Of a stretch of 32,000 bases of DNA, positions 1 through 17,597 are shown piece by piece (the first letter of the stretch is position 1; every line of letters begins with the position of its first letter). The translations under genes were made by a program, and so were the position numbers. The stretch comes from Candidatus Saccharimonadota bacterium (GTDB lineage: Archaea; Micrarchaeota; Micrarchaeia; Micrarchaeales; Micrarchaeaceae): positions 1 to 32,000 of the forward strand of contig OY969114.1 of assembly GCA_963698035.1 (NCBI GenBank), read 5' to 3'. The notes below the pieces were generated by a model that was given only the letters and a program-made list of their open reading frames with translations, had not been told where the DNA came from and searched no databases.

Positions 1-46
1 ACCCCCCCATCTCCAGATGTCAGGATAGGTATAAATATCTGGGAAA

Positions 47-805
47 ATGTCCATCATGATTATAGTTGAGCTATGCGCAGGAAAAACGGAGGGTAGTAGG
101 CCAAGCCGACGTAAAAAAATAGTGGTATCTTGATTTTGACGGAGTTTTAATAAAAGAGAAATCGTCTTGGTCATCCATGAAAAGAATACACAACATTCCT
201 GAGGTATACCCTCTTTTCAGAAGAGGTAAAATAAGTCTTCAGGAGTCACTGAGCTTCCTTGAATCTGCGGCGAAAGATGTAGGGCTATGCCGTTCCGACT
301 TTGTTAGCGCCGCAAACACGGCCCCGTTAGAGGACCATGCATCTGAGGTGGTCGAGAGCTGAATGCCGAAGGCGTAGGTCTTGACATAGCCACGTTTTCT
401 CCCACCATATACGCAAGAGTTGTTGCGAATAGAATTCACCCCCGGGCATTTTTAAGGCCGGTTATCTCCGTCGGCCCAGTTCCCATGAATGTTTATGGCA
501 GAACTACGGTTTTTGATTCGCAAGGTCAATATGTTAGCACATACGCGTATCCGAATGGCGCTGGCCAGCCTTGGGAAAACCAAAGAGATCTCAACAAAAA
601 GATAGTGCTAGATACTATAGCAGCAAGATGGAGGATAGAAAGCGGCAATATCCTATTCGTTAGCGATGGCGGGGACACTGAAGCTTCTTTATACTATCCG
701 ACAAATGGCTACAAGCATGCTGGTGACACCCTACGCACCATAGCCGAGATATCAGATCTCAGGGACCTGCTAAAAGATTCGTATAAGTTTCTTCAATTCT
801 TTTAG
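47..805 (+). pseudogene. HAD-superfamily hydrolase, decayed copy of the intact gene at 2907..3644
   Basis: Same sequence as 2907..3644 but broken into fragments (ORFs 177-362 and 485-805). There are several indels in 47-176, a 1-nt deletion near 357 (gtcgagag-ctgaatg versus gtcgagaggctgaatg), and a 2-nt insertion near 770. Confidence 0.85.
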
Positions 806-880
806 ATATGGGACACCTCCTGTATTTCCACTAATGATAGTATTAAATATCATATAGCGAAGAGTATATTTGGGGGTAAT
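784..880 (+). promoter_or_regulatory. Cassette junction module (T-rich box, GGGACACC..TTTCCAC box, TATA-like box, GGGGGT SD-like)
   Basis: Sequence is taagTTTCTTCAATTCTTTTAG atat GGGACACCTCCTGTATTTCCAC taatgatag TATTAAATAT ... GGGGGTaatATG. It is homologous to the modules at 1412, 3645 and 5585. Confidence 0.7.
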
Positions 881-1069
881 ATGCCATCGACTGTTTTTAA
901 ACGCGGAAGATTAGGTGGTCAACTGAGGGCTACAACAGATCCTGCCCTGGCTGCGTCTATGGTTGCAACATCGGCCGCTGTCATAGCCTATCTGGTGTAT
1001 CTGGCCAACGAGGAGGCCAAGAAATTTAAGCGGGACAATCCCGATCTCATGGCCAGCCTTAGAAAATAA
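881..1069 (+). CDS. Small single-pass membrane protein (62 aa), hypothetical
   Basis: Intact ORF with a hydrophobic core (AASMVATSAAVIAYLVYL) and a GGGGGT 4 nt upstream of the ATG. An identical copy sits at 2624-2812. Confidence 0.6.
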   Translation: MPSTVFKRGRLGGQLRATTDPALAASMVATSAAVIAYLVYLANEEAKKFKRDNPDLMASLRK

Positions 1070-1093
1070 TTCTCATAGCCCGGAACACTAGAA

Positions 1094-1414
1094 ATGACAT
1101 ACCGTGATAATATGAATAAAAGTTCAACTATCGCATCCGGAGACACTATACACGCAGAAGATAATCCTGAAAGAGTTAGACCTCTTTTAAGAGATTTTGG
1201 ATCAAGAGTCACGTCTCTTTTAAGAGACTATGGACTAGCAGCAACAATAGTAATTGTTACGACTACCAGTACCGTTGCCGGTGTGATTTATGAACCGGTC
1301 CAAGGTCTACCGCTCAACCCCGTAATCCAGGGAGCAGCAGTGGGATTTGTAGGACTTTTTCTTAGTGGTTTGGGGGCGGTCATTACAAATGCATTCCTAG
1401 AGGGCAAAAATTAA
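1094..1414 (+). CDS. Membrane protein (106 aa, two predicted TM segments), hypothetical
   Basis: ORF lies 24 nt downstream of the 62-aa gene. Hydrophobic stretches are AATIVIVTTTSTVAGVI and AAVGFVGLFLSGLGAVI. The copy at 2279-2599 differs by 1 aa. Confidence 0.6.
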   Translation: MTYRDNMNKSSTIASGDTIHAEDNPERVRPLLRDFGSRVTSLLRDYGLAATIVIVTTTSTVAGVIYEPVQGLPLNPVIQGAAVGFVGLFLSGLGAVITNAFLEGKN

Positions 1415-1512
1415 AACCTTCTTGGTCTTTCTTCAATTCTTTTGGCAAAGGGGACACCCCAATGTTTCCATAATTCATAAATACCTAATAATCATAATGT
1501 GAATGTGTTATT
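1412..1512 (+). promoter_or_regulatory. Cassette junction module
   Basis: Sequence is cttggtcTTTCTTCAATTCTTTTGG caaa GGGGACACCCCAATGTTTCCAT aa TTCATAAATACC, followed by ~30 nt and the ATG at 1513. Confidence 0.7.
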
Positions 1513-1767
1513 ATGGCAGCAACACAAAGCAGATCGGTGCGGCCCCAAAAAATATCAAGATTAATTCGTGAGGGCGAATTACCGTCAGGAAATTTAATGG
1601 ATAAACAACAGGTTATCAAAGAAATAGGTGAAAAAAACTGGGACGCTTTTCTTAAGTTTATGGAGGGCCAAACATTTAAGGTTGATTCCGAAGGACGTGA
1701 GAGCTACCATAGCACCGATGTTCAAAGTTTTCTACATAGACCAAAACCCAGATCTAGCCTTCTTTGA
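1513..1767 (+). CDS. Hypothetical protein (84 aa)
   Basis: ORF is duplicated at 1923-2180. The C-termini differ because of a 1-nt indel (RSSLL* versus RLALFD*). Confidence 0.55.
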   Translation: MAATQSRSVRPQKISRLIREGELPSGNLMDKQQVIKEIGEKNWDAFLKFMEGQTFKVDSEGRESYHSTDVQSFLHRPKPRSSLL

Positions 1768-1799
1768 TTAGATATACTTAGTTTTTCTTCAATTGTTTT

Positions 1800-1894
1800 C
1801 TTTCTTTTGAGGCGATCGCTCTGCTATTGGTTATTTACACGTGGTAACCTAGCATATCAAGACGCCTCAAAAGAAAGAGAAGACCATCTTTACT
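1800..1894. repeat. 95-nt unique centre of the inverted duplication, containing a perfect 15-bp inverted repeat (1800-1814 / 1863-1877) around a 48-nt loop
   Basis: CTTTCTTTTGAGGCG ... CGCCTCAAAAGAAAG read directly. The loop contains CACGTG. An 18-nt unpaired segment (1878-1895) makes the centre asymmetric. Confidence 0.85.
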
Positions 1895-1922
1895 AAAACA
1901 ATTGAAGAAAAACTAAGTATAT

Positions 1923-2180
1923 CTAATCAAAGAGGGCTAATCTGGGTTTTGGTCTATGTAGAAAACTTTGAACATCGGTGCTATGGTAGCTCTCACGTCC
2001 TTCGGAATCAACCTTAAATGTTTGGCCCTCCATAAACTTAAGAAAAGCGTCCCAGTTTTTTTCGCCTATTTCTTTGATAACCTGTTGTTTATCCATTAAA
2101 TTTCCTGATGGTAATTCGCCCTCACGAATTAATCTTGATATTTTTTGGGGCCGCGCCGATCTGCTTTGTGTTGCTGCCAT
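1923..2180 (-). CDS. Hypothetical protein (85 aa), paralog of 1513..1767
   Basis: Near-identical translation to 1513..1767. Confidence 0.55.
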   Translation of the reverse strand: MAATQSRSARPQKISRLIREGELPSGNLMDKQQVIKEIGEKNWDAFLKFMEGQTFKVDSEGRESYHSTDVQSFLHRPKPRLALFD

Positions 2181-2281
2181 AATAACACATTCACATTATG
2201 ATTATTAGGTATTTATGAATTGTGGAAACATGGGGGTGTCCCCTTTGCCAAAAGAATTGAAGAAAAACTAAGAAGGTTTTA
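2181..2281 (-). promoter_or_regulatory. Cassette junction module (mirror of 1412..1512)
   Basis: Minus strand reads cttAGTTTTTCTTCAATTCTTTTGG caaa GGGGACACCCCCATGTTTCCAC aa TTCATAAATACC. Confidence 0.7.
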
Positions 2282-2599
2282 ATTTTTGCCCTCTAGGAAT
2301 GCATTTGTAATGACCGCCCCCAAACCACTAAGAAAAAGTCCTACAAATCCCACTGCTGCTCCCTGGATTACGGGGTTGAGCGGTAGACCTTGGACCGGTT
2401 CATAAATCACACCGGCAACGGTACTGGTAGTCGTAACAATTACTATTGTTGCTGCTAGTCCATAGTCTCTTAAAAGAGACGTGACTCTTGATCCAAAATC
2501 TCTTAAAAGAGGTCTAACTCTTTCAGGATTATCTTCTGCGTGTATAGCGTCTCCGGATGCGATAGTTGAACTTTTATTCATATTATCACGGTATGTCAT
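2279..2599 (-). CDS. Membrane protein (106 aa), paralog of 1094..1414
   Basis: Translation differs from 1094..1414 at one residue (T to A). Confidence 0.6.
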   Translation of the reverse strand: MTYRDNMNKSSTIASGDAIHAEDNPERVRPLLRDFGSRVTSLLRDYGLAATIVIVTTTSTVAGVIYEPVQGLPLNPVIQGAAVGFVGLFLSGLGAVITNAFLEGKN

Positions 2600-2623
2600 T
2601 TCTAGTGTTCCGGGCTATGAGAA

Positions 2624-2812
2624 TTATTTTCTAAGGCTGGCCATGAGATCGGGATTGTCCCGCTTAAATTTCTTGGCCTCCTCGTTGGCCAGATACACCA
2701 GATAGGCTATGACAGCGGCCGATGTTGCAACCATAGACGCAGCCAGGGCAGGATCTGTTGTAGCCCTCAGTTGACCACCTAATCTTCCGCGTTTAAAAAC
2801 AGTCGATGGCAT
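2624..2812 (-). CDS. Small membrane protein (62 aa), paralog of 881..1069
   Basis: Translation is identical to 881..1069. Confidence 0.6.
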   Translation of the reverse strand: MPSTVFKRGRLGGQLRATTDPALAASMVATSAAVIAYLVYLANEEAKKFKRDNPDLMASLRK

Positions 2813-2909
2813 ATTACCCCCAAATATACTCTTCGCTATATGATATTTAATACTATCATTAGTGGAAATACAGGAGGTGTCCCATATCTAAAAGAATTGA
2901 AGAAAACTA
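2813..2909 (-). promoter_or_regulatory. Cassette junction module; begins with the TAG stop codon of the HAD gene
   Basis: Minus strand reads TAG TTTTCTTCAATTCTTTTAG atat GGGACACCTCCTGTATTTCCAC ... TATTAAATAT. Confidence 0.7.
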
Positions 2910-3644
2910 TACGAATCTTAGCAGGTCCCTGAGATCTGATATCTCGGCTATGGTGCGTAGGGTGTCACCAGCATGCTTGTAGCCAATTGTCGGATAGTAT
3001 AAAGAAGCTTCAGTGTCCCCGCCATCGCTAACGAATAGGATATTGCCGCTTTCTATCCTCCATCTTGCTGCTATAGTATCTAGCACTATCTTTTTGTTGA
3101 GATCTCTTTGGTTTTCCCAAGGCTGGCCAGCGCCATTCGGATACGCGTATGTGCTAACATATTGACCTTGCGAATCAAAAACCGTAGTTCTGCCATAAAC
3201 ATTCATGGGAACTGGGCCGACGGAGATAACCGGCCTTAAAAATGCCCGGGGGTGAATTCTATTCGCAACAACTCTTGCGTATATGGTGGGAGAAAACGTG
3301 GCTATGTCAAGACCTACGCCTTCGGCATTCAGCCTCTCGACCACCTCAGATGCATGGTCCTCTAGCGGGGCCGTGTTTGCGGCGCTAACAAAGTCGGAAC
3401 GGCATAGCCCTACATCTTTCGCCGCAGATTCAAGGAAGCCCAGTGACTCCTGAAGACTTATTTTACCTCTTCTGAAAAGAGGGTATACCTCAGGAATGTT
3501 GTGTATTCTTTTCATGGATGACCAAGACGATTTCTCTTTGATTAAAACTCCGTCAAGATCAAATACCACTCTTTTTACATCGGCTTGGCCTACTACCCTC
3601 CGTTCTCTTTCCTGCGCATAGCTCAACATAATCATGATGGACAT
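2907..3644 (-). CDS. HAD-superfamily hydrolase/phosphatase (intact copy)
   Basis: Contains HAD motif I (VVFDLDGVL) and a C-terminal acidic motif (FVSDGGDTE). The TATA box lies only ~9 nt from the first ATG, so the true start may be M4 or M6 (3635 or 3629). Confidence 0.7.
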   Translation of the reverse strand: MSIMIMLSYAQERERRVVGQADVKRVVFDLDGVLIKEKSSWSSMKRIHNIPEVYPLFRRGKISLQESLGFLESAAKDVGLCRSDFVSAANTAPLEDHASEVVERLNAEGVGLDIATFSPTIYARVVANRIHPRAFLRPVISVGPVPMNVYGRTTVFDSQGQYVSTYAYPNGAGQPWENQRDLNKKIVLDTIAARWRIESGNILFVSDGGDTEASLYYPTIGYKHAGDTLRTIAEISDLRDLLRFV

Positions 3645-3724
3645 TTCCAGATATTTATACCTATCCTGGGCGTTTGTGGAAATGCGGGGGTGGCCTTTTT
3701 GCTAAAGGAATTGAAGAAAAACTA
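3645..3724 (-). promoter_or_regulatory. Cassette junction module; begins with the TAG stop of 3722..4630
   Basis: Minus strand reads TAG TTTTTCTTCAATTCCTTTAG caaaa AGGCCACCCCCGCATTTCCAC aaacgcccaggatag GTATAAATATCTGG. Confidence 0.7.
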
Positions 3725-4630
3725 AGAAAGCTTTGATCGTGTCCTTCTTTCATTTGCATACGTTTGTTCAAAAATCGACCTTGCTTCTTGAAGGGTTTGC
3801 GCCTTTATTGCAGCTGGAAAGTGGAACCTCAAAAGGGAAAGTTTCCCAACATCATCTAAGCTTCCGCGCGCTGCCTGTCTTATAGCATCCTTATTAAGTA
3901 CGTCCAGAGGTGTCAACGAGCCACGTACTTCTGCATTAAAACCAAGTCGGGTGAGCTCATTTTCGAGATATTGCGCATGGCCAGCGCCTACTATCACAAC
4001 AACGCAGTGACTTTGTCCTGTCTTGCTTGCAACCGCTGCTATGTTGTCCCTCATCGCAGGCTCCCTTATAAGGTCGGCTTCGCCGAGAAGTCTTGCCTCT
4101 GTCATGCAACCTTGCAGTGCTTCATTAAATGAAGTAGTAGTCCGCAGCGTTTTTATCGCGGTTCTTTTCTCAATATACCTGCTTCTTATCCTTTCGTCAG
4201 TAATGTCGGCGTCTATTGGAATAATTTCAATTCCGGCAGCGCTTAGCTTGATCAATAATTCCATTAATGTTTTGTAATACCATCGAAGTTCTGGTCTTGT
4301 CATATTATTTACGTGCGCCTGGAGCTCCTCTTCTGTGATCTTTGGCATTGCTGCATAAAATGCACGTTTATTACTTGAGCTTTCAAAGCATACGCTTGTA
4401 ATCTCATACTCTTTAGATAGCGATAAGATGTCTGCGTATAAGGCAACAAGGCCTCCGGCACCCTCATTGCCGTGCCTGTCGGGGAATATCACTATTCTAG
4501 GTGCAGCTACCCTTACTAATCCCTTGATACCGGGTTCATCCCTCTTAGGAATCGGAATGGGCTTTGCGCCAATTTCACTAACTAAAGCCGTTCTTACAGC
4601 CGGGCCTCGATCTATTGTTAGATCAGCCAT
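3722..4630 (-). CDS. Tiki/TraB/ChaN-superfamily-like protein (302 aa)
   Basis: N-terminal FPDRHGNE and C-terminal VVVIVGAGHAQY resemble the two His-containing motifs of this superfamily. Recognised by eye only. Confidence 0.4.
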   Translation of the reverse strand: MADLTIDRGPAVRTALVSEIGAKPIPIPKRDEPGIKGLVRVAAPRIVIFPDRHGNEGAGGLVALYADILSLSKEYEITSVCFESSSNKRAFYAAMPKITEEELQAHVNNMTRPELRWYYKTLMELLIKLSAAGIEIIPIDADITDERIRSRYIEKRTAIKTLRTTTSFNEALQGCMTEARLLGEADLIREPAMRDNIAAVASKTGQSHCVVVIVGAGHAQYLENELTRLGFNAEVRGSLTPLDVLNKDAIRQAARGSLDDVGKLSLLRFHFPAAIKAQTLQEARSIFEQTYANERRTRSKLS

Positions 4631-4682
4631 ATCTTCACATTATACTGCGGGACTTCAGATATTTACGCATTTTTCTGCTATT

Positions 4683-5108
4683 CTAATCTCTTAATCTCAA
4701 ACGTCTGAACAAATCGATAGTCTCACCATAAGATAGATGCTCTGGCACGCTCTCCATCTTTGTTAACCCTATTTCTGACAATTCGTATACTTCCTTGCCC
4801 AGCTTCAATGCGTGTATGATTTCCGCGCCCATCCCTGCTAAGACAAATCCTTGAAATCGTGTGTAAACCAACAAACTACACCTTTCGATAATGCCCAAAT
4901 AAAAACCCATATCCCTTATTCCATAGTCTTTTACTGTTGCTGGATTGATTATTGCATAGTCTGGAAAGTGCTGTGCTATGATCTGCACTTGCGCTTTTTC
5001 TTCCTTTGTGCCGTATACCGGTTGTGCGTGCGCGAAATAGACCGTCTTCTCAGCGTTTGCCGGAAGCAGCTTGGCTGCTGCTTCATCCCATAGGCTCGGT
5101 CTTTTCAC
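4683..5108 (-). CDS. Nucleoside 2-deoxyribosyltransferase-like (DUF4406-like) protein, GTG start
   Basis: Pattern is VYFAHAQP ... IIERCSLLVY ... AGMGAEIIHALKLGKEVY, as in NDT-like Rossmann proteins. The start codon is uncertain. Confidence 0.35.
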   Translation of the reverse strand: MKRPSLWDEAAAKLLPANAEKTVYFAHAQPVYGTKEEKAQVQIIAQHFPDYAIINPATVKDYGIRDMGFYLGIIERCSLLVYTRFQGFVLAGMGAEIIHALKLGKEVYELSEIGLTKMESVPEHLSYGETIDLFRRLRLRD

Positions 5109-5173
5109 GTATATAGCGCCTCCAGTTACAGCAGTTAAACCTTTATTCGTATTATTGCCCCCTTTCCGAACGC

Positions 5174-5584
5174 TTACCTTACCAGCTTTCCGGCTTCGGA
5201 AGCAGCACTACCGCCTGGCTGCATTTTACTCAACCGATTCGCATACTCATCTTCAAAAAGCTCTTTCCACTCCTTTCTGCGCTGCATACCCTCCTCTGTC
5301 ACATACCAGCAGGGCTCACCGAGATCCGAAACTGTCAATGGCGCCTTAAGTTCTACTGCCAGCAATCTCTCATTTAACATTTCGTCGAAGCGGACAGAGA
5401 GCTTATGGAGGTTATTAAAAAACCTTTGGCCGCTAGATAGGCCCAAAGAGGCCGCGGCACCCAATATTATCTGTGTCTTATCGCTCAGCTCGCGCAAAAT
5501 CATCAGGTCTGTTATGAGCAATCCCAATAATTCTTGCTCTGAGAGCCTCCGTGCTGGTTTAGGAACTGTTGCGCTTCCCTGCAT
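5174..5584 (-). CDS. Hypothetical protein (136 aa)
   Basis: ORF is preceded by a full junction module with a TATA box. Confidence 0.5.
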   Translation of the reverse strand: MQGSATVPKPARRLSEQELLGLLITDLMILRELSDKTQIILGAAASLGLSSGQRFFNNLHKLSVRFDEMLNERLLAVELKAPLTVSDLGEPCWYVTEEGMQRRKEWKELFEDEYANRLSKMQPGGSAASEAGKLVR

Positions 5585-5680
5585 ATTGCCACAAAAATAT
5601 TCTGTTTGCCCAAATATTTAATATTATCATTTGTGGGAAGCAGAAGTGTCCCTTTAATGAAAGAATTGAAGAGAAACTAA
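5585..5680 (-). promoter_or_regulatory. Cassette junction module
   Basis: Minus strand reads TTAGTTTCTCTTCAATTCTTTC attaa AGGGACACTTCTGCTTCCCAC aaatgataa TATTAAATATTTGGG. No same-strand gene lies upstream of it. Confidence 0.7.
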
Positions 5681-5740
5681 TCGCCTCCTATCCTGTACAA
5701 GTTGCTTAAATACTTTTATCTTGCATTACCTCTGATCTGC

Positions 5741-6316
5741 ATGGAGCTTAGAACAAAAAGATTGGTATTAAGGCGGCCTAGGAAGAATGACCTACCCAAT
5801 CTAGTTAAAAACATAAGCAACATTCGGGTGTCAAAATGGTTGCTTACTGTTCCTTACCCCTATACTATTAAAGATGCACGATGGTACCTGAATCACAGTG
5901 CAAAGAAGTGGGGTGCTAGAAAGAAGACGGGATACGCATTTTTTATAGCCTTGAAAAGCAACAGGCATGTAATTGGTGGATGTGGTATAGATGGGATCAA
6001 CAAAAGTCAGGGTACCGCAGAGGTTGGTTACTGGCTCGGTGAAAAATATTGGCGGAGAGGATACGGAAGCGAAGCTCTTGATGCTATGTTAAAGTTTACT
6101 TTCAACAGCCTAAAATTGAGGAGAGTGTCGGCGCCTATATTTGCTGGTAATCCAAGCTCGGGTAAATTATTGGAGAAATACGGATTCAAAAAAGAGGGAT
6201 TGAAAAGAAAATCTGCCGTGTGCAAAGCCAATGGTAAAATAAGGGACGAGGTTGTTTACGGATTGCTTAAAGAGGAGTGGAAAGCTGACAAGAGAAAAAG
6301 GGATTTATTCTCTTGA
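5741..6316 (+). CDS. GNAT family N-acetyltransferase (RimJ/RimL-like)
   Basis: Contains MELRTKRLVLRRP, GYWLGEKYWRRGYGSEA and GNPSSGKLLEKYGFKKEG. A TATA-like GCTTAAATAC lies ~27 nt upstream of the ATG at 5741. The tracked ORF starts at the TTG at 5702. Confidence 0.8.
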   Translation: MELRTKRLVLRRPRKNDLPNLVKNISNIRVSKWLLTVPYPYTIKDARWYLNHSAKKWGARKKTGYAFFIALKSNRHVIGGCGIDGINKSQGTAEVGYWLGEKYWRRGYGSEALDAMLKFTFNSLKLRRVSAPIFAGNPSSGKLLEKYGFKKEGLKRKSAVCKANGKIRDEVVYGLLKEEWKADKRKRDLFS

Positions 6317-6601
6317 CAAAAGCCTGTACACTTTTATTTGTGTTCCGTAGATGTCCTTGTAGATGCTGTCTTGTATTTTTTCTTGAACAAAGCCGTCCGC
6401 TGCAAGCCTTGGCAAAAGCTTTTCAAGCACGTGTTTCGCTTCTTGATCGTCCATCCCTACATTTATGGAGCACATCGCACGCACAATCTCATGGGAATTT
6501 TTCCACCTTTCAGATAATGCGTTTGGTATCAGGTTCTTATTTTCTAGATCTGAGCCTATGTATGGTCTAGAAGCAACTGCCGTGGGCATATTTTCACTCA
6601 A
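6305..6601 (-). CDS. Hypothetical small protein (98 aa), possible winged-helix fold
   Basis: ORF lies 6 nt downstream of 6608..6970. Its 3' end overlaps the convergent GNAT gene by 12 nt. Confidence 0.4.
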   Translation of the reverse strand: MSENMPTAVASRPYIGSDLENKNLIPNALSERWKNSHEIVRAMCSINVGMDDQEAKHVLEKLLPRLAADGFVQEKIQDSIYKDIYGTQIKVYRLLSRE

Positions 6602-6607
6602 TAATAA

Positions 6608-6970
6608 TTACGGGTTATCCAGTTCGGAACCTATGGCCCTGAGTAATTTTGTGCACGCGGTCTCGGTTTCTGCTGGATACGTAAAACGCGAGGAAAGAAA
6701 TTCATGCACTGCACTCTCGGTTGCCGGCGTTGATTTGAGCTCTGCGGAGAGCATTTCTCCGGTGTGACTTATATCCTCAATAATACTTATTCTTCCATCA
6801 GACAATACGCCAATCGTCAAATCGAACGGTCTTTCTGCACCGGACTGAATTTCTGCGGTCTTTGGAGTTATGCGTACAATAGCAGCGTTGCGATCTGCGT
6901 GCGTGTCAATGCGCAGCTCTACTCCTGGAGTTATTACGGTTCGGCAAGCTGTTACCATTATATCACACAT
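6608..6970 (-). CDS. Hypothetical protein (120 aa)
   Basis: ORF has an upstream TATA (CCAGATATTTAAAGC at 6985-6999 on the plus strand). Confidence 0.45.
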   Translation of the reverse strand: MCDIMVTACRTVITPGVELRIDTHADRNAAIVRITPKTAEIQSGAERPFDLTIGVLSDGRISIIEDISHTGEMLSAELKSTPATESAVHEFLSSRFTYPAETETACTKLLRAIGSELDNP

Positions 6971-7047
6971 AATATAGCGTATTTCCAGATATTTAAAGCC
7001 TATGAATTACAGCAAAGTGGGGGTGTTTTATTATGCTTCTGTACCTT
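6971..7047 (-). promoter_or_regulatory. Partial junction module (G-string box and TATA only, no CTTCAATTC box)
   Basis: Plus strand 7010-7028 reads acagcaaaGTGGGGGTGtt. TTTAAATATCTGG lies upstream of the ATG at 6970. Confidence 0.5.
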
Positions 7048-7536
7048 TTAGACTAGTGTTCTTCGGACCTTCCCTTTGCAAATAGTACCGTTGTGACCGA
7101 TATCATGCAAAGTGTATTGTAGAATATACTCGAAGACCGGAGGCAAAGCGAAACTTGGCACTTCGCACTCCATTTCAAAAGCTTTGGTTTTACAATGGTT
7201 TATGCCATTAACATCAAATCTTATACATTTGTTTAATATCGCTTCAAAAGAAGTTTGTAGCTCCTCCGTTTTATCTGGCATACTGCGTGCTTCCCACGTT
7301 GAGTATGCTTTTTCCAGAAAAGGCATAACTTGCTGTAGCTGCAATCTTGCAATAACTTTCCTCTCCTCAACATCCGCTGCCATTCTCTTATAATCAAGTA
7401 CATTTGTTAGTGTTGATGACTCTGATGGTAAACTTCTGGTTCCCGTTTTCGTCACCATTTTATCGTATTTTAATATTTTAACTGTCTGCAACTGGGATCC
7501 ATCGTGCATTAACTTTTCGTGTGTTAGCGACGACAA
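7048..7536 (-). CDS. Hypothetical protein; true start possibly 7458
   Basis: The ORF overlaps the upstream gene by 59 nt. An internal Met (MVTKTG) at 7458 removes the overlap. Confidence 0.4.
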   Translation of the reverse strand: MSSLTHEKLMHDGSQLQTVKILKYDKMVTKTGTRSLPSESSTLTNVLDYKRMAADVEERKVIARLQLQQVMPFLEKAYSTWEARSMPDKTEELQTSFEAILNKCIRFDVNGINHCKTKAFEMECEVPSFALPPVFEYILQYTLHDIGHNGTICKGKVRRTLV

Positions 7537-7978
7537 ACCTTGCCGTTATTTCGTTTTCACCTGTAACTGAATAGTTTCCTATGGCAATGCTGTCTTTAAA
7601 AGCGAATATCGAGGTATGCATTTTCCTTTTGCCCTCAAAATATTTTCTGATCTCTTTCATTACCCCTTTCAGCTCTCCTTTGTCTGTAAGATCTACGCCG
7701 CTGATGGTGAATGCCATAGTGCCGCCGTGTGTAACCCATTCCTTCCGGCTATTGCTGGAGACCTCATGACCATAATGCATTGTGTATACTTTTGATACAT
7801 GTAGTTTTATATCGCTGTGATCGCTGTTAAAATTCAGCGCGCTTTGCGCAAACCTTTCAGAAATTTCGTCGGCCTGCCGCTTGATACTGTCTGCACTGTA
7901 CTCTACTAGTCCGGGTACGCTCCTTAAGAGCTTCCGTGTCGTAGGGCTTGCCTCTAAATTTTGAGAGATGGTTGACAT
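7478..7978 (-). CDS. Hypothetical protein (166 aa)
   Basis: ORF is preceded by a short junction module and an AT-rich TATA region. Confidence 0.45.
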   Translation of the reverse strand: MSTISQNLEASPTTRKLLRSVPGLVEYSADSIKRQADEISERFAQSALNFNSDHSDIKLHVSKVYTMHYGHEVSSNSRKEWVTHGGTMAFTISGVDLTDKGELKGVMKEIRKYFEGKRKMHTSIFAFKDSIAIGNYSVTGENEITARFVVANTRKVNARWIPVADS

Positions 7979-8037
7979 TTTATCACATTTTAATATTTTT
8001 ACTAGCAGAATTGAAGAAAACTAATATTTTAGTTTTA
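7979..8037 (-). promoter_or_regulatory. Short junction module (T-rich CTTCAATTC box fused directly to the TATA region)
   Basis: Minus strand reads TAA aactaaaata TTAGTTTTCTTCAATTCTGCTAG TAAAAATATTAAAAT gtgataaaATG. Confidence 0.6.
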
Positions 8038-8937
8038 TTGTCTCCTAAAGATATCACCCAGGAGCCTATTCCCAAGTTCGTCATTCCTTCTCAGCGCGCC
8101 TTCCACCAGCTCCAACTCCAGCCCTTCTATCATCTGCTTAATCTCACCTTGCTCTTCGACGCCGCCGAAGGTGATCGTGCCCTTAATCATCTCTTCCATG
8201 AGCCCCGAGAAGTGATTCAAGCTGCTTTTTAGAGTAGTGAAGTCTTTTGCATACTTCGATAGTATTGTGCCCACCTTGTGCATGTCCGGCGTGGGGACAA
8301 GAAGTGTCACAAGCCCTGCCACGTCTATAGGATCCTTGACCCTCGTGCTGTCCAAGGATAGCACAAGCTTCATTGCAAGCAGGGATTCTGTGTCGACCAT
8401 ACGGATCCATTGTTTCGAATATGGAATGACTCCCCTTACGCTATGCTCCGATAATACATCATCTGGCGGCATCAAGAGCCTGTCGCGCCTTTCTACATAT
8501 ACATCGATGTCTACCTCAGTTCCACTTGTGTCTTTGGCCTTTATCTCGTGCTTTTTAAGGATTGGATTGTAATTTATACCCCAACCGTTCTCGTTCGCCA
8601 TTCCCTGAAGTAGGGTCCAGCCGCCCTCTGAAACGGCAACATCTATGTCATGAGACTTCCTCAACCCGCACTTTGCAAATACCGCCCATCCTCCTATGAC
8701 CGCGATCATGGGCATATTGCCGCTGTCAGCCTCGCGCACCTCTTGCCTATTGAAGATCTGAGACATTATTTCTAGGCAGGCGCGTTCTTTTGCGGCATCC
8801 GACGTAACGGCCTGTGAAGCCTTGGCCTTGAGCGCGTTGCCTATCTCCCCTTTTGCGCTTCTAGGCATAATACCAAAAGCAGGCTCTGGGCTTCTGGCTG
8901 TTGTATTTGTTATATCCACCACAATTGGCATAATCAT
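8035..8937 (-). CDS. Nucleotidyltransferase-fold protein, AbiEii/DUF1814-like
   Basis: IGGWAVFAKCGLRKSHDIDVAV fits the GG..(R)xSxDxD minimal NTase motif. ESLLAMKLVLSLDSTRVKDPIDVAGL resembles the AbiEii C-terminal K/D motif. Confidence 0.45.
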   Translation of the reverse strand: MIMPIVVDITNTTARSPEPAFGIMPRSAKGEIGNALKAKASQAVTSDAAKERACLEIMSQIFNRQEVREADSGNMPMIAVIGGWAVFAKCGLRKSHDIDVAVSEGGWTLLQGMANENGWGINYNPILKKHEIKAKDTSGTEVDIDVYVERRDRLLMPPDDVLSEHSVRGVIPYSKQWIRMVDTESLLAMKLVLSLDSTRVKDPIDVAGLVTLLVPTPDMHKVGTILSKYAKDFTTLKSSLNHFSGLMEEMIKGTITFGGVEEQGEIKQMIEGLELELVEGALRRNDELGNRLLGDIFRRQ

Positions 8938-9119
8938 CTACTAATTTAGCGCTGGGGATGATATTTATGCTTATCGAGAGGGTGCGCTACCCGTCGCAGT
9001 TACGGCCCACTCAAGCCATCCCTTACCGCTTCAGTTACCATTTCCTAGCTTATGATGATACTCTCAGCCGTACTCTATTTACCAAAATATTTATGCCTGT
9101 CTAAGAGCATTTGCGGAAA

Positions 9120-9392
9120 CTAATCTTGCAATTTTGCAAGATACTCCTCCCCCTCGCGGGTGATTAGATAGGTCCTTGGAGGATTTTGGCGGGTATACTG
9201 TTCAGGAAATATCTGGTCTGATTCCTTGACGAACCCTCTTCCAACCAACGACTTAAGCGTTTTGCCTAATTCATCCTCTGCTGTGTTTGTAACGTGCCTT
9301 ATGTACTCCGGTGTCTCGCCTGGACTACCGCGCAAGCATTCAAGCACGCGTTCTTCAATAATTCTCGTAGGCATTCTCGTTGTTTGCATCAT
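9120..9392 (-). CDS. Small winged-helix DNA-binding protein (90 aa)
   Basis: ERVLECLRGSPGETPEYIRHVTNTAEDELGKTLKSLVGRGFV has a wHTH-like pattern. TATA box ATATTTATGC is at 9417-9431. Confidence 0.45.
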   Translation of the reverse strand: MMQTTRMPTRIIEERVLECLRGSPGETPEYIRHVTNTAEDELGKTLKSLVGRGFVKESDQIFPEQYTRQNPPRTYLITREGEEYLAKLQD

Positions 9393-9608
9393 ATTATCGC
9401 AAAATCGCTGTGTTTTACGTAATATTTATGCTTATCTTTCATCACAAAAGAATCAAAGAAAAAGTATAATTTTACTAAAGACCCCTATCTGTTAATTTTT
9501 TTCAAACTGAACTTTAATGAATCTTTAGTTAACAATAGTAAGCACCTTAAGATACTTAAGGCTTTGCTATGCACGGGCTTTGCACTTAAAATATGACTTG
9601 CACTTATT

Positions 9609-10253
9609 TTAATCACGGGCCTCTACATGTTGCAGTCCTTCTTGGCTGGGCGCTCCTGTAGACAGGATTCCTGTCGGTCTTCTCTGTTGCTTGAGTCTCC
9701 TTCTTTCATCCTTGCATCTTTCCTTTTGGTATCTAATAGTATCTTTCTCCGATCTAAAGATGCCGCCTTCGTATACACCTCCTGCGGCTTTAAAGACTCC
9801 GTTAAATGTTGAACCATCAGAGCGAGTGACATTTCCGTCCATCTCAATTGCACCATCTACAGTTGTATTAGTAATCACCTTCTGCCCATACGCACTGAGG
9901 CCATGTAACTTCGACTTGACAACCAATACTCCATTAGAAAGGCTGCCTCCATAAACTTCCGACCTCCCTAATATAACTGAGTCTCGATTTTGATTTACAT
10001 CAGACCAAACAAGAGATTCAGAGCCCGGTGTTACTTCATACCATCCTCCACCAGTAAGATTTCTCCTAAGCTGGTGCTCTGAACCGTTAGATTTAAGAAC
10101 AAATGTGGCTACCTTTTCTTCAATAGGTATTCTGGCTACCAGACCGGGTAATTCAAGAGCGGACTGAATGCTACCAATCTGTACGGCTATGGCCCTTTCT
10201 TGTGTTGTAAGGGAGGCGATTGTTAGACAAGTTTGTTGTGTTTTGAATGCCAT
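9609..10253 (-). CDS. Hypothetical protein (214 aa), Gly-rich beta-type repeats and a basic C-terminus
   Basis: ORF with its own TATA box. No family recognised. Confidence 0.45.
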   Translation of the reverse strand: MAFKTQQTCLTIASLTTQERAIAVQIGSIQSALELPGLVARIPIEEKVATFVLKSNGSEHQLRRNLTGGGWYEVTPGSESLVWSDVNQNRDSVILGRSEVYGGSLSNGVLVVKSKLHGLSAYGQKVITNTTVDGAIEMDGNVTRSDGSTFNGVFKAAGGVYEGGIFRSEKDTIRYQKERCKDERRRLKQQRRPTGILSTGAPSQEGLQHVEARD

Positions 10254-10296
10254 ATAATCATAAGTAGCTGCGATTTCCCAGATATTTATGCTTTTC
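10254..10296 (-). promoter_or_regulatory. Promoter half of a junction module split by the transposon
   Basis: CCCAGATATTTATGC at 10277-10291 (plus strand) lies ~25-38 nt upstream of the ATG at 10253. The transposon target duplication starts 6 nt beyond the TATA box. Confidence 0.6.
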
Positions 10297-10305
10297 CTGA
10301 AGCCT
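10297..10305. repeat. Target-site duplication, left copy (CTGAAGCCT)
   Basis: An identical 9-mer occurs at 14581-14589, immediately outside the two terminal inverted repeats. Confidence 0.75.
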
Positions 10306-10369
10306 AGCTTTGCTAATAAACCTTGCTAATTAATTTACTTTGTTAGCAGATTTAATTCTTTATTAGCAG
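10306..10369. repeat. Left terminal inverted repeat plus subterminal TTTATTAGCA-type repeats
   Basis: Copies are TGCTAATAAA (10311-10320), TGCTAATTAA (10324-10333), TTTGTTAGCA (10339-10348) and TTTATTAGCA (10359-10368). Confidence 0.7.
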
Positions 10370-10370
10370 A

Positions 10371-11612
10371 CTATTCTATTTTACCATCTAAGAGGTCTTG
10401 AACTGTCCTCAAAACTATCTCTAAGCCGTCTTGATTCTTAACTCTGGCTACCTCTTCTTTAGCACCACTACCAAAAGAAAAAGCAACTACATATCCTTTC
10501 TTTCTATTCATACGACGCATAGCCGTCTCAAAGTTATCTATCACATTTCTTCCAACATCAGGACTTTGCTTGACTTGTATAGGATAGCCACCAGTAACTT
10601 GTGGGGTAAGCCCATCAATTCCCATATCACCAGATTTTGTTCTGCTTATAGTCCCTAAGAACTTATCAACAACAACCCAGTTCTGAAACTCGAATGGTTC
10701 AAGCTTTTTGACATAGTTTATATCGACGTCGCCTTTTACCATCTGTGCGGTTATGTGATATTCTTTCTTCAATCGCTTAGCCATCAGTTTACACGCAGTT
10801 GGGCTTATGTCAATTCCTATCCACTTTCTACCATTTTTTTGTGCAGAAGATATAGCAGTTCCGCAACCACAGAAAGGGTCTAAGACCAATTCGTCTTTAT
10901 TAGAGCTTGCACTTATTATCCTATCCAAAAGTGCTACTGGTTTTTGTGTAGGATAACCCATGTATTCTCCAGTATTATTTATTGTCTGAAACGAAGGAAT
11001 GTCAGTCCATACTGTAGACATCGCTTTTCCTTTAGATTTATCCAAATAAACTATTCTTTTCTTTCCGTCTTTATCAAAATAGATTTTGTATTTCCTACCT
11101 TCGTCATCAGTTTTGTCATATCTTTTTATTGTCCTTTGATCTAATTCTCCATGTTCTTTATTGAAAGTATATTTGCTTGATTTAGAATAGAAAAGAATGG
11201 TGTCATGACCTCTAATCCATTTATTTGCTTGTGCTTTGAATCCAGACGAAGTTTCGTTTGACCATATGATTTCATTCTTAAAGTTCTTTTCACCAAATAT
11301 CTTATCCATTAAAATTCTAAGGTGTGCATTTGCATGATAATCGCAGTGCAAATAAATAGAGCCAGTTTCTTTCAGCACTCTCCAACATTCTCTTAATCGT
11401 GGCTCCATCCACGTTATATAAAATTCAATATCACCTTCCCATCTATCTTTAAAACTACGTATTTCTTCTTTATCATGCCAAATAACCTCGTAGTTTTTGT
11501 TAGTAAAGAAGGGAGGGTCAAGATAAATCAGGTCAATTTTATTATCTGGGAACTTGCTCATAATCTCCAGATTATCTCCCTCATAAATAGCATCAATTTC
11601 CATAGCTGACAT
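10371..11612 (-). CDS. DNA methyltransferase (beta-class, DPPF) fused to a C-terminal Mrr-like PD-(D/E)xK nuclease domain
   Basis: Motif IV (IYLDPPFF) lies near the N-terminus and motif I (DPFCGCGT) is later. The C-terminal GDMGIDG..YPIQVKQ resembles the Mrr catalytic core (GIDG...QxK). Confidence 0.75.
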   Translation of the reverse strand: MSAMEIDAIYEGDNLEIMSKFPDNKIDLIYLDPPFFTNKNYEVIWHDKEEIRSFKDRWEGDIEFYITWMEPRLRECWRVLKETGSIYLHCDYHANAHLRILMDKIFGEKNFKNEIIWSNETSSGFKAQANKWIRGHDTILFYSKSSKYTFNKEHGELDQRTIKRYDKTDDEGRKYKIYFDKDGKKRIVYLDKSKGKAMSTVWTDIPSFQTINNTGEYMGYPTQKPVALLDRIISASSNKDELVLDPFCGCGTAISSAQKNGRKWIGIDISPTACKLMAKRLKKEYHITAQMVKGDVDINYVKKLEPFEFQNWVVVDKFLGTISRTKSGDMGIDGLTPQVTGGYPIQVKQSPDVGRNVIDNFETAMRRMNRKKGYVVAFSFGSGAKEEVARVKNQDGLEIVLRTVQDLLDGKIE

Positions 11613-11620
11613 TATATCAT

Positions 11621-12853
11621 CTAAGCTTTAAAAACCTTATCAGAAAGCTCTGGAGTTATCCCAAGCTCATATATCGCACTTATCAAAACTGTTATGTTAT
11701 ATGCTATCAGTTTGCACATTAGCTCGTTGGTCTGCGATACAAAGTTTTTGTTCTTTAGACCATCGCCGAGCTTGGTCTTGATAGCCATATTCGTTGTCTC
11801 TATGTTAGACCTTTTGTGATAATGTTCCATAAATTCTTCTTGTTTGTATTGGAACAAATGGAACATATTACGCCACAAGCGAGACTTACCTCTTGGGTTT
11901 CCTACTGCGTTTGATTTGAAGGGAATGTAAGGCGTTATGCCCATCTCTTCCGCAAGAACGTAGTTAGCTCTTGAGCTATACGCTTTGTCCGCACTAATCT
12001 CTTGCACATTAAATCCATTCTTTGAAGTTGTTTGAAGCAACGAAGGAAAAGATAGCGTATCGTTTTCGTGTTCTGATGTTATCTCAACTGATGTTATCAC
12101 ATTCGTTTTAGTTCCTACGCACAAGTGAGCTTTTAACCAGTGATGCCCTTTGTTCGTTCCATATTTGTTATGGCAATACTCTCCGAACTTCGTGGTTCTA
12201 AATCCAGTGCTATCTATTGCGAACTGGGTCTCAACACTCTTTAAAGGCAACGCTGTAATCTCCAGCAGTTCCTTTAGCAGTGGCGTTATCTCTGGGTCGT
12301 TGAGCAATATGTTTATCACGTTATAATTAGGTGCTTTGCTTATCTGCTCCTTGCCTTGAGCGTTCCTATAAAGCGAATATGCACGTCTGCTTGATAGCTG
12401 GGAATAGACCTTTTGTATTGCACAGAATAAGCCCTCTCTCAAAGGCACTCTTGGTCTTCCTATCACTTGCACTGGCTCATTTATGTTTTGAACCAAGTCT
12501 CTTAGAAGCTCATCAAAGAGCTTTACCTCTTCGTTCTGTGCCTTAGTGTAAGCAGACCAGTTTTGAGGATAGGTTATCCTCTTGGTCGCTGTTATCGTAG
12601 TGCTACCATCTTTATTGACCTGTTTTTCTACTGTGATTTCTACTGCGAATATATGCTTACATTTGACCCCTCTGGTCGCATAATCTCGGCACGTGCATCT
12701 TGACCCATCAATCCTTAGTTCTACGCTATAAGATTGTCTTGGATTAGTCTGCGATGGCACTTGCCATATACCGTTCCTATTGACTATCTGTTTTGTCTGG
12801 GCTATTGCATAGCCCTTTTCTTTTCTCTTTTTTACCAGTTCTACTTGTTGCAT
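11621..12853 (-). CDS. DDE transposase, IS4/IS5 superfamily, with an N-terminal SWIM zinc finger
   Basis: SWIM motif is CTCRDYATRGVKCKH. DDE elements are FAIDSTGF, ISADKAYSS and the Y-x2-R-x3-E-x6-K signature (YHKRSNIETTNMAIK). The stop lies 8 nt from the methyltransferase start. Confidence 0.85.
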   Translation of the reverse strand: MQQVELVKKRKEKGYAIAQTKQIVNRNGIWQVPSQTNPRQSYSVELRIDGSRCTCRDYATRGVKCKHIFAVEITVEKQVNKDGSTTITATKRITYPQNWSAYTKAQNEEVKLFDELLRDLVQNINEPVQVIGRPRVPLREGLFCAIQKVYSQLSSRRAYSLYRNAQGKEQISKAPNYNVINILLNDPEITPLLKELLEITALPLKSVETQFAIDSTGFRTTKFGEYCHNKYGTNKGHHWLKAHLCVGTKTNVITSVEITSEHENDTLSFPSLLQTTSKNGFNVQEISADKAYSSRANYVLAEEMGITPYIPFKSNAVGNPRGKSRLWRNMFHLFQYKQEEFMEHYHKRSNIETTNMAIKTKLGDGLKNKNFVSQTNELMCKLIAYNITVLISAIYELGITPELSDKVFKA

Positions 12854-12869
12854 ATCAGCACCATATTGT

Positions 12870-12958
12870 TAGGCACCTAACTATATACTATTAGGCACCT
12901 ACAAGTATATATATCTATCGGTATGCTACCGCAAGGTTTATAAAGGAATAGGCACCTA
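12870..12958. promoter_or_regulatory. Three TAGGCACCTA boxes in the divergent promoter region between the transposase and the DUF488 operon
   Basis: Exact 10-mers occur at 12870-12879, 12892-12901 and 12949-12958, interleaved with TATA-like tracts (CTATATAC, GTATATATAT, TTTATAAAG). Confidence 0.65.
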
Positions 12959-12966
12959 ATAGTATT

Positions 12967-13764
12967 ATGAAGCTTCAAAAACGCTTTTCTCGTAAGGTAA
13001 ATGACAAGGAATACGTCAAGTGGATATTGACAATACCACCAGAGGACATAGAAAAAGTTGGCTGGAAAGAAGGTCAAGATGTTAATTCTGTTGTAGTGGC
13101 GGATGGATTACTCATAAAGAAAAGTGAATCTATCAATTACGTTGATTTCAAGAACCGCTTATATGCTCTCCTAAATGAAGGTTTTGGCTTTACTTGGAAC
13201 GAAATAAAAAGACGGTTGAACATAGAGCAAACCATTCCAAACAATAAATGGGTAAATGACCTTCAAAAAGACATTCAATTAAGGCGAAGAAAGATAGGAG
13301 CCACTACCTATTGGTATTTGGAAAAAGGTGGAACGCCGATTTATACGATTGGTTATGAAGGCAAAAGCGTAGAGGAGCTTATAGAAATACTCAAAAGATA
13401 TGGAATAAAACGCTTAGTTGATGTAAGGGAATTAGCACTTAGTCGTAAAAATGGTTTTTCAAAATCCGTATTGAAAGATAAGCTAAATGAAAATCATATA
13501 GGGTATCAGAATATATCCGAGCTTGGTTCTCCGAGAGTTTTGAGACATCAGCTATGGAACGACAAAAACTATGACGAGTTCTTCAAGAAATATTCAGAAT
13601 GGATTGATTCTATCAACTCAAAAACCGCTTTAGAAAACCTTGAAGGATTAGCACACATCAGAGCTACCGCAATAATGTGTTTTGAAAAGGATGTAGAAAA
13701 ATGCCATCGAAGTATAATCAAGAAAAGGCTAATTCAAGATGGCTTCAAGGTCGTTGATTTATGA
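12967..13764 (+). CDS. AbrB/SpoVT-like domain, winged-helix-like linker and DUF488 domain fusion protein
   Basis: The N-terminus ILTIPPEDIEKVGWKEGQDVNSVVVADGLLIKK matches the AbrB swapped-hairpin pattern. The C-terminal half (IYTIGYEGKS...VDVR...CFEKDVEKCHRSII) matches DUF488. Confidence 0.65.
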   Translation: MKLQKRFSRKVNDKEYVKWILTIPPEDIEKVGWKEGQDVNSVVVADGLLIKKSESINYVDFKNRLYALLNEGFGFTWNEIKRRLNIEQTIPNNKWVNDLQKDIQLRRRKIGATTYWYLEKGGTPIYTIGYEGKSVEELIEILKRYGIKRLVDVRELALSRKNGFSKSVLKDKLNENHIGYQNISELGSPRVLRHQLWNDKNYDEFFKKYSEWIDSINSKTALENLEGLAHIRATAIMCFEKDVEKCHRSIIKKRLIQDGFKVVDL

Positions 13765-14525
13765 CATCCACAAAAAAGCGAGTTATAATAGTAGCGAAAA
13801 CTTATCCTAATCTTAGCGAGAAATACGAGGAAACTGTATGCGTTGCTGGGATAGATATGGAGACTGGCGACTGGATTAGGATGTTTCCAATAGCCTTTAG
13901 AAAATTGCGTCCTTCACAGAAGTTTAGGAAATTTGATATTATTGAAGTGGAAACGGAACGATATAACGACAAATATACGAGAGTTGAAAATTATAGGGTT
14001 AGGGATAAAAGTATCAAAATCATAGAGCACAAATCAAATCCAGATTGGGAATCAAGAAAGGACATATTATTGCCTAAGTTAATTGATTCAGTAGAGGAAC
14101 TTGAAACTTCAAGAGACGCATCTCATAAGACATTAGGTTTGATAAAGCCGAGAGAAATCGTAGATTTTTATAAGAAAAATATAGATGAATGTAGAGACTG
14201 GGAAAAAGAATTGATTGAAGGGACACAAAGAACCCTTTTTGGAAATTATAGGACTCCATTAAAGAAAATCCCTTACTGGATGGGATATAATTTTCTCTGT
14301 AATGGTGCTAACTGCGGAGGGCATAATATGATGTGCGAAGATTGGGAATTGATGGAGCTATTTAGAAGTATGAAAAATAGGTTTGGTAATGAAGTGGGTT
14401 TTAGTAAGGTTAGAGATAAGTTCTTTGAATGGATGCAACAAAGGGATGTCTATTTCGTGCTTGGAACAGAAAGCAGATGGAATAGGTTTTTGATAGTCTC
14501 GGTGTTTTATCCGCCGAGAGAGTGA
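13761..14525 (+). CDS. Uncharacterised 254-aa protein with a Cys/His cluster (CNGANCGGHNMMCEDWE)
   Basis: ATGA start/stop overlap with the DUF488 gene indicates translational coupling. No family recognised. Confidence 0.55.
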   Translation: MTSTKKRVIIVAKTYPNLSEKYEETVCVAGIDMETGDWIRMFPIAFRKLRPSQKFRKFDIIEVETERYNDKYTRVENYRVRDKSIKIIEHKSNPDWESRKDILLPKLIDSVEELETSRDASHKTLGLIKPREIVDFYKKNIDECRDWEKELIEGTQRTLFGNYRTPLKKIPYWMGYNFLCNGANCGGHNMMCEDWELMELFRSMKNRFGNEVGFSKVRDKFFEWMQQRDVYFVLGTESRWNRFLIVSVFYPPRE

Positions 14526-14526
14526 G

Positions 14527-14580: not shown

Positions 14581-14589
14581 CTGAAGCCT
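14581..14589. repeat. Target-site duplication, right copy (CTGAAGCCT)
   Basis: Identical to 10297-10305. Similarity continues for 9 more nt (GGCTTTGCT versus AGCTTTGCT), because the flank resembles the element's own terminus. Confidence 0.75.
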
Positions 14590-17593: not shown

Positions 17594-17597
17594 CGCA

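Follow-up and report, generated by a model that had tools for sequence, protein, structure and literature searches.

Repeated stop-to-start junction modules between orphan genes of an archaeal island, a candidate analogue of the promoter-early stem-loops of T4-type phages

The first 32,000 nucleotides of contig OY969114.1 (the whole stretch analysed, hereafter the window) contain a low-GC island in which unrelated genes are joined by copies of one conserved module, running from the stop codon of one gene to the start codon of the next. Read in gene direction, the module consists of a T-rich end signal (T), a conserved box (O) and a TATA promoter (P), in spacers of 55-110 nt, and every independent copy is on the minus strand, in gene direction. 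We propose, with a probability of roughly 0.55, that these modules are portable terminator-promoter junctions around orphan-gene cassettes, exchanged by recombination in or near the junctions, and that they would constitute an archaeal analogue of the promoter-early stem-loops (PeSLs) of T4-type phages.

Once a fold-back duplication at the left end of the window is set aside (see below), the independent copies are four full modules (J2-J5), four junctions with the T part only (J1, J6, the weak J7 and the split J8) and one relic of O and P (J5b; Table 1). The T motif TAGTTTTTCTTCAATTCTTTT is matched seven times at three or fewer mismatches, against 0.00 matches expected from dinucleotide shuffles. 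A profile of the four full modules recovers J2-J5 in an nhmmer search of the window (E = 1e-21 to 1e-28), together with partial copies at 1887-1924, 7999-8025 and 14620-14646. The T part begins 0-14 nt past the stop codon in six of its eight copies: for the genes ending at 2907, 3722 and 14631 its TAG is the stop codon itself, as an earlier reading made from the letters alone (the sequence-only reading) had observed, and for three others the stop lies 11-14 nt upstream. Successive T parts are spaced 355, 640, 814, 1955 and 2345 nt apart; the 14-kb island holds 8-9 junctions, and the transcription units between them hold 1-5 genes. The copies are 70-86% identical to one another and flank unrelated genes, among them those of a haloacid-dehalogenase-family (HAD) hydrolase, an inverted GNAT acetyltransferase, an HTH regulator with an AbiEii-like nucleotidyltransferase (NTase), and orphans. 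In agreement with the sequence-only reading, an all-against-all BLASTP of the window cassette genes found no relatedness among the flanked proteins, and hidden paralogy was rejected on this basis. Of the weaker relics named by that reading, 6971-7047 proved to be O plus P and the one at about 9441-9462 a weak T part (about 9446-9466), while the T-only copy at 1895-1915 had been missed.

Table 1. Junction copies and other features, in window coordinates
Feature	Position	Strand	Remarks
J1: T part only, TAGTTTTTCTTCAATTGTTTT	1887-1925 (T 1895-1915)	-	13 nt after the stop of the 85-aa gene; last array junction
J2: full T-O-P, between the 106-aa and 85-aa genes	2181-2281	-	nhmmer E = 4.8e-21
J3: full, between the HAD and 62-aa genes	2813-2909	-	TAG 2907-2909 is the HAD stop; nhmmer E = 2.2e-23
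J4: full, between the 302-aa gene and HAD	3636-3724	-	TAG 3722-3724 is the stop of the 302-aa gene; nhmmer E = 7.5e-28
J5: full, upstream of the 136-aa gene	5585-5680	-	nhmmer E = 3.4e-21
J5b: relic, O-like box ACACCCCCAC..TGTAATTCATA (like J2) and TATA promoter of the 120-aa gene, no T	6971-7047	-	
J6: T part TAGTTTTCTTCAATTCT, 11 nt after the NTase stop	7979-8037 (T about 8003-8023)	-	
J7: degenerate T part TACTTTTTCTTTGATTCTTTT and promoter of the 90-aa HTH gene	9393-9466 (T 9446-9466)	-	3 mismatches
J8, upstream half: TAG (stop of the 162-aa gene) and TTTTTCTTCAA, then diverged to the insertion point	14590-14633 (T 14612-14633)	-	
J8, downstream half: promoter of the 214-aa gene, GCATAAATATCTGGG	10254-10296	-	transposon separates the halves
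Cargo transposon, 4,275 bp	10306-14580	.	splits J8
Core-region gene promoter, near-identical to the P part of J4	22266-22292	-	96% repeat match; 22/22 nt
Fold-back (inverted) copy of 1808-3660	1-1807	+	mirrors J1-J4, including copies 784-880 and 1412-1512
tRNA-Val(GAC)	15525-15597	-	3' end abuts the low-GC island; marks the island/core boundary

Two of the copies first listed are not independent. An inverted-repeat search of the window found 130-1753 complementary to 1940-3562 at 98-100%; the left arm (1-1807) is 98.3% identical to the right arm with 8 gaps, the HAD gene is broken in it, and the pivot is a natural short inverted repeat, TGAGGCG...CGCCTCA. The short-read contig L001 (run ERR10755947) is 100% identical to the window from 5111 down to 1808 and then continues into unrelated DNA, with about 480 nt of non-coding sequence followed by a convergent gene for a phospholipase D (PLD)-like protein. 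Because this independent contig leaves the window sequence at 1808, the left arm is most likely a fold-back artefact at the end of a long-read contig, and the copies at 784-880 and 1412-1512 are consequently the same junctions as 2813-2909 and 2181-2281. The repeat behind the claim of at least eight homologous intergenic copies is thus real, but these two are mirror duplicates and four full modules remain.

To the right of the pivot the assembly is well reproduced: contig L022 equals the window from 15581 down to 5436 at 100%, contig L021, from another assembly, equals it from 5850 down to 4127 at 99.9%, and in all 1808-15581 is recovered at 99.9-100% by three independent contigs from two other assemblies. 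An assembly artefact, or a recent local tandem duplication without function, might be suspected from the fact that 2 of the 8 listed copies come from the fold-back and from indel errors in the assembly, e.g., the frameshift in DnaK. This view is already largely refuted and barely credible, given the independent contigs, the divergence of the remaining copies, which are not near-identical and flank unrelated genes, and the presence of homologous modules in other lineages.

The three-part anatomy described in the sequence-only reading (a T-rich part, GGGACACC..TTTCCAC and a TATA box) is seen in the alignments. The T part is an 18-nt stretch of the form UUUUU-CUUCAAUUC-UUUU, in which the U5 and U4 tracts are 9 nt apart; a tract of four or more U is present in 7/8 window T parts and two such tracts in 4/8. 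In Methanococcus, the minimal efficient terminator and aCPSF1-binding element comprises two U4 tracts, is at least 18 nt long and does not need a hairpin (Li et al. 2021, PMC8716108). Similarly, T carries U5 and U4 within 18 nt on the coding strand, follows stop codons and has no hairpin, and it is best read, from these features, as a candidate terminator. It differs from ordinary U-tract terminators, which are not conserved in sequence between genes, in that its CUUCAAYUC is conserved across genes and lineages, in that some copies have no U4 tract, and in that the organism's core genes end without it.

DNA folding of J2-J5 on both strands gave no hairpin (z -0.9 to +0.5 versus shuffled sequences). 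With no fold more stable than shuffled, the modules are therefore neither attC-type sites nor stem-loop terminators. The window repeat search likewise found no inverted repeats within them, and Rfam 15 gave no match at the modules up to E = 5, with only two tRNAs passing the gathering threshold in the window; a known RNA family was rejected on this negative. Also rejected were a conserved opposite-strand micro-ORF, as reading frames and stops vary among the copies, and tRNA-derived att repeats, as the tRNA-Val fragments present in the island and L001 do not exceed 11 nt.

The P part consists of a TATA box, (A/T)TAAATATC(TGG), followed by the next start codon. Across island and core, the TATA box starts at -36/-37 from the start codon (short leader, about 8 genes) or at -24/-26 (leaderless, 3 genes). 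Boxes of the AAATATCTGG type also precede the core genes at 22268 and 20457 and the tRNA-adjacent gene at 15462. In fact, the HAD promoter in J4 equals the promoter of the 446-aa core-region gene exactly over 22 nt (24/25 identical between 3647-3671 and 22268-22292), and the TATA consensus is used in the relatives L019, L124 and L126 as well. As the box also stands upstream of core genes, P appears to be the ordinary promoter of the lineage and not specific to the module. We note that the 446-aa gene has an island-like GC3 (GC at third codon positions) of 0.49 and is 32% identical to its positional counterpart in a relative; it may itself be a variable gene.

In contrast to P, neither T nor O was found at the core gene ends in the window (about a dozen, 16 kb), and a T profile built from the window copies had no match in the window core, in L124 or in 18 kb of core sequence from L019, the closest relative. 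T and O are therefore not the organism's general terminator consensus. In the DNA covered, the suspicion that the motif is a genome-wide consensus applies to the promoter third alone. The idea of a terminator, operator and promoter unit copied between genes stands as far as a modular stop-to-start junction that fits archaeal rules is concerned, but not for that promoter third.

Base composition also changes between module-bearing and module-free DNA. GC is 0.50-0.58 at 15,598-32,000 and about 0.36-0.46 at 1-15,500, and the step up at 15.5 kb coincides with the position of the tRNA-Val gene. GC3 is 0.29-0.56 in island genes versus 0.67-0.77 in core genes; consequently, the strong GC differences among flanked genes reported earlier turn out to be only moderate, with all of them well below the core. 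Exact look-ups of island proteins (n=10) in a 15-billion-sequence protein collection found them in no other lineage, and a homology search with the 302-aa island protein returned only itself. The low GC and GC3, together with the tRNA-Val gene at the boundary, mark the stretch from 1808 to about 15500 as a putative horizontally acquired island of orphan genes beside tRNA-Val in a small archaeal genome.

In the full modules the O part, GGGACACC-N6-8-TTTCCAC(A)AAT, follows T after 10-12 nt, whereas the gap between O and the TATA box ranges over 6-17 nt and widens to 30 nt in L123, a contig of another lineage. O is conserved across lineages: the 15-mer CCCCCATGTTTCCAC is identical in L123 and J2, and TTTCCGCAAAT occurs both in L126 and at window 9108-9119. 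This conservation, the better conservation of the CTTCAAYTC core relative to its flanks and the presence of an HTH regulator in the island (90 aa, matching phrog_2440 at E = 1.3e-8) would all suit a regulon in which T-O is the operator or terminator of one factor, either the 90-aa HTH protein or a host factor, and similarity is kept by selection for binding with no mobility involved. We regard this as the foremost alternative, though an unlikely one: the homology spans whole spacers, leaders and 20 nt upstream of the TAG, exceeding what a binding site needs, the variable O-to-TATA distance is unusual for a position-dependent archaeal activator or repressor, and the different neighbours of the NTase gene in each lineage are left unexplained.

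Comparison of the copies with one another reveals that the modules are mosaic, their left and right halves having different closest partners. The left part of J2 is shared with J4 (79% over 75 nt, including 22 nt upstream of the TAG), while its right part is closest to J5b; J3 and J5 share the right part, from the promoter through the 5' leader, and the J4 promoter has its match in the core. In J6, the T part joins the promoter of the 166-aa gene directly, with no O part.

The modules are not confined to this island. Contigs of other lineages were reached through homologues of the NTase, the sole island gene with out-of-lineage homologues in the searches run, and T-O stands beside different genes in three other related lineages (L123, L126 and L128). 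L123, whose NTase is 79% identical, has TTTTTCTTCA-TTCTTTTGG behind the stop codon, next an O-like box, and after that a second unit ending GGGATGCCCCCATGTTTCCAC, a TATA box and a DUF7557 gene; upstream of its NTase lies a GNAT-like gene instead of the HTH gene. In L128 (NTase 54%), TTTTCTTCAATTCTCTTGGCAAAA comes immediately after a stop codon (E = 0.0013, window-only T profile). The spacer then runs through an O-like box, a decayed promoter and another T-like unit to the promoter of the NTase gene, and T-like sequence is seen a third time, in diverged form, behind the downstream HIT gene. L126/L127 (NTase 52%) have two spacers among small genes with recognisable module parts: TTTCTTCAACTCTCTTAGCAAAACAGG in L126, which matches J4 at 22/26 positions, and, in the second spacer, GGAGGCACCCTATGTTTCCGCAAATCATAAGGTATAAG, similar to O and P of J2.

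The neighbours of the NTase gene are different in all five contexts seen, and in the alignment at J6 the homology between window and L123 is lost right after T. Hence, on the limited data at hand, the check for a fixed syntenic gene order speaks for changing neighbours, with one breakpoint directly after T. With T-O present in other lineages beside other genes, the unit appears to be older or more mobile than this one island, associated with accessory genes and located at one or more rearrangement breakpoints.

Tandem T(-O) units within one spacer are seen in L128 (192-393) and L123 (1523-1658). In L128, a decayed promoter comes after the first of these units, then about 25 nt that end in TAG; the arrangement looks like a cassette whose gene has been lost. 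In L124, which also has an NTase homologue, a Cas12f1-like/TnpB gene is inserted in the variable region (2373-3455).

Wider pattern scans added no further members. The strict full-module pattern CTTCAATTC-N8-14-GGSMCAC-N4-10-TTYCCAC gave 8 matches in GTDB species genomes and 4 in JGI metagenomes, all single, in unrelated bacteria or viruses and about as many as expected by chance; the pattern is too strict, missing L123 through a 1-nt deletion. An earlier variant, TTCTTCAATTCYTT-N3-14-GGSMCAC, gave 5 single, unrelated, chance-level matches in IMG/VR, and two more IMG/VR scans with T-part patterns found only chance matches inside coding regions. A search for strain variants by exact-protein look-ups returned only collinear contigs of the same strain.

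The arrangement has a close counterpart in phages, and the earlier statement that it is unlike any described system overlooks this analogy (PMC2839356, PMC4122927). PeSLs of T4-type phages consist of a stop codon, a terminator, a promoter of host consensus and a start codon (Arbiol et al. 2010, PMC2839356). They cluster at orphan genes in plastic regions (PMC2839356), PeSL cassettes shuffle genes in the hyperplastic regions of these phages (PMC2839356; Comeau et al. 2014, PMC4122927), and their recombination and mini-circles have been demonstrated experimentally (PMC2839356; PMC4122927). In island and phage alike, a composite stop-to-start module combines a predicted terminator with a host-consensus promoter, many repeats stand in one orientation, the surrounding region is plastic and rich in small orphan genes (no modules in the 16-kb core, L019 or L124), and homologous modules of related genomes enclose different genes. 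In contrast to PeSLs, the modules described here lie in an island of an archaeal chromosome, have a TATA-type rather than a sigma-70 promoter, use a U-tract element with no stem-loop as T and include the extra conserved O box. Recombination, experimental in PeSLs, is here read from sequence comparison, and the two share no sequence homology; the modules are consequently an analogue and not a member of the PeSL family.

The T part, placed no more than about 14 nt from the upstream stop, would most likely end transcription, O is probably a protein-binding box, and P would restart transcription for the next gene. With T-O-P conserved between the units, the junctions would insulate each foreign gene as an expression unit of its own. 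The likeliest history would be one of gene gain, loss and exchange through recombination within or next to the junctions, as for PeSL cassettes; mosaic modules, tandem 'empty' modules and differing NTase neighbours are the expected product of such events.

A second cassette platform, the integron, offers a partial likeness. Integrons and CALINs, i.e., clusters of attC sites lacking an integrase, archaeal integrons included (PMC9668308), carry short, unrelated genes in tandem, most of them in the same orientation, with a site of 60-120 nt repeated between one gene and the next (Ghaly et al. 2022, PMC9668308). Toxin-antitoxin-like cassettes occur in both, and in the island two or more sites lie less than 4 kb apart between short co-oriented open reading frames, as in those arrays. 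However, the modules differ by having neither the attC single-strand hairpin nor R''/L''-L'/R' box symmetry, each unit receives its own promoter, and several units hold 2-5 genes. No IntI integrase or other recombinase was found among the proteins of the 32-kb window.

This comparison bears on the possibility that T-O units are attachment sites of site-specific recombination, forming an integron-like array with the recombinase encoded outside the window and with circles inserted at T-O. Same-strand direct repeats spaced by 1-5 genes, a site TAG that supplies the stop codon of three genes, gene-less tandem sites in L123 and L128 and the tight T-to-O spacing of 10-12 nt would be consistent with such sites, and integrase-less arrays are common for integrons (PMC9668308). 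We nevertheless consider it quite improbable. The defining attC fold is absent, with no hairpin on either strand (z -0.9 to +0.5); no dyad symmetry typical of the core sites of tyrosine or serine recombinases is visible; Pfam, PHROGs and PADLOC reveal no recombinase domain in the island proteins; and the cassettes, in contrast to those typical of integrons, each come with a promoter. In addition, the breakpoints vary, falling after CAATTCT in J6, after CTTCAA in J8 and after TTTTAGTAAAGATGG in J1.

A bolder extension of the analogy, which we hold to be doubtful, is that T-O-P represents an undescribed archaeal cassette system of small DPANN-like genomes, in which junctions express captured orphan genes and serve as exchange points for the movement of cassettes among the genomes of a clade; exchange could then proceed by homologous recombination or by a dedicated recombinase recognising CTTCAAYTC...GGGACACC...TTTCCAC. 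If true, integrons and phage PeSLs would be joined by a third platform for gene cassettes. Our search of the literature found no description of such modules in archaea.

One junction has been interrupted by a mobile element, and its structure helps to judge whether the modules are themselves mobile elements. The sequence-only reading's 'split pair' at 14590-14633 and 10254-10296 is indeed one junction, J8, interrupted by a transposon. The element has a perfect 16-bp terminal inverted repeat, AGCTTTGCTAATAAAC, and the 9 bp of target sequence duplicated on either side of it, CTGAAGCCT, occupy 10297-10305 and 14581-14589. Its cargo comprises a SWIM+DDE transposase, an N6/N4 methylase-Mrr fusion, a DUF488 protein and a DuOB-domain protein; the short-read contig L022 contains the insertion as well. 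The transposon carries several subterminal TTATTAGCA repeats, and its GC of 0.36 is below that of the island.

Intergenic repeats of the type of miniature inverted-repeat transposable elements (MITEs), such as the Correia elements of Neisseria, are short and can supply transcription signals to their neighbours. The modules could, by this model, be a small non-autonomous element of that kind, inserted between genes and bringing a terminator and a promoter with it. They are indeed short, are repeated only in intergenic DNA and occur in several lineages, and the island contains an active DDE transposon whose end (TTATTAGCAAAG) is similar to the T-part tail (TTTTAGCAAAG). We nevertheless judge this origin very unlikely. 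Terminal inverted repeats and target duplications were not found around the modules, whereas the transposon at 10306-14580 has both. The homology occupies exactly the stretch between stop and start codon and fades gradually, with no sharp edges; all copies have one orientation relative to the genes, and parts are found separately (T only, or O plus P only).

Several observations weigh against portable, recombining terminator-promoter junctions. The CTTCAAYTC core of T is better conserved than its U runs, and the T parts of J5 and L126 have no U4 tract at all; plain termination therefore does not explain the conservation of T. J5 has no co-directional upstream gene, the divergent GNAT gene starting just beyond it. 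Taken singly, the T matches in L123 and L126 are marginal, at E of about 0.2 with a T-only profile, and the comparison of swapped neighbours concerns one cassette, the NTase, on short contigs. The restriction of T and O to the island is based on about 50 kb of core or related DNA, compared with a contig of 776 kb. L001, L021 and L022 are collinear with the window and display no recombinant, circle or strain polymorphism; the earlier proposal of recombination between modules for cassette shuffling thus gained no direct support from these same-strain assemblies, and gene shuffling is only suggested. Terminator activity, promoter activity and the role of O as a binding site are, like recombination, predictions from sequence.

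If the modules do mediate exchange, archaeal genomes of very small size, which have few regulators and lack obvious integron machinery, could take up orphan genes and express them immediately, and the principle of mobile regulatory cassettes, documented in T4-type phages, would extend to archaeal chromosomes. The T part would offer a compact, sequence-defined candidate terminator for an uncultivated lineage, and the O box a candidate site for use as protein bait. Were the modules shared regulatory signals only, a promoter consensus for the clade and the marking of a hypervariable island would remain.

Among the island proteins, phage and defence annotation (PHROGs, PADLOC) found nothing besides one HTH regulator. 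The 90-aa HTH gene lies upstream of the 300-aa AbiEii-like NTase gene (8035-9392), and the pair resembles a type IV toxin-antitoxin system; the HTH partner is absent beside the NTase homologues of other lineages. Stop codons of island genes (1808-15436) are nearly all TAA or TAG, with TGA in two listed genes at the array edges, and those of core genes (15598-26783) are often TGA.

The core at 15,598-32,000 encodes housekeeping proteins: RNase Z, archaeal RqcH, GGGP synthase, Trm5b, ScpA/B, L11, Spt5, GrpE and DnaK. The nearest named homologues of RNase Z are at most 68% identical and come from metagenome-assembled genomes labelled Marsarchaeota or Micrarchaeota; one relative reaches 82%. DnaK (30599-32000) is split by a frameshift near 31040-31090, with residues 1-165 in one frame and 147-467 in another, reflecting either an assembly indel error or a pseudogene. 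In the 82%-identical relative L019, an arginase gene that is absent from the window follows tRNA-Val(GAC). Relative to L019, a core segment of ~11 kb (15525-26914) is inverted in the window, and this segment is bounded by inverted tRNA-Val(GAC) and tRNA-Val(CAC) genes (77 nt, 87% complementary).

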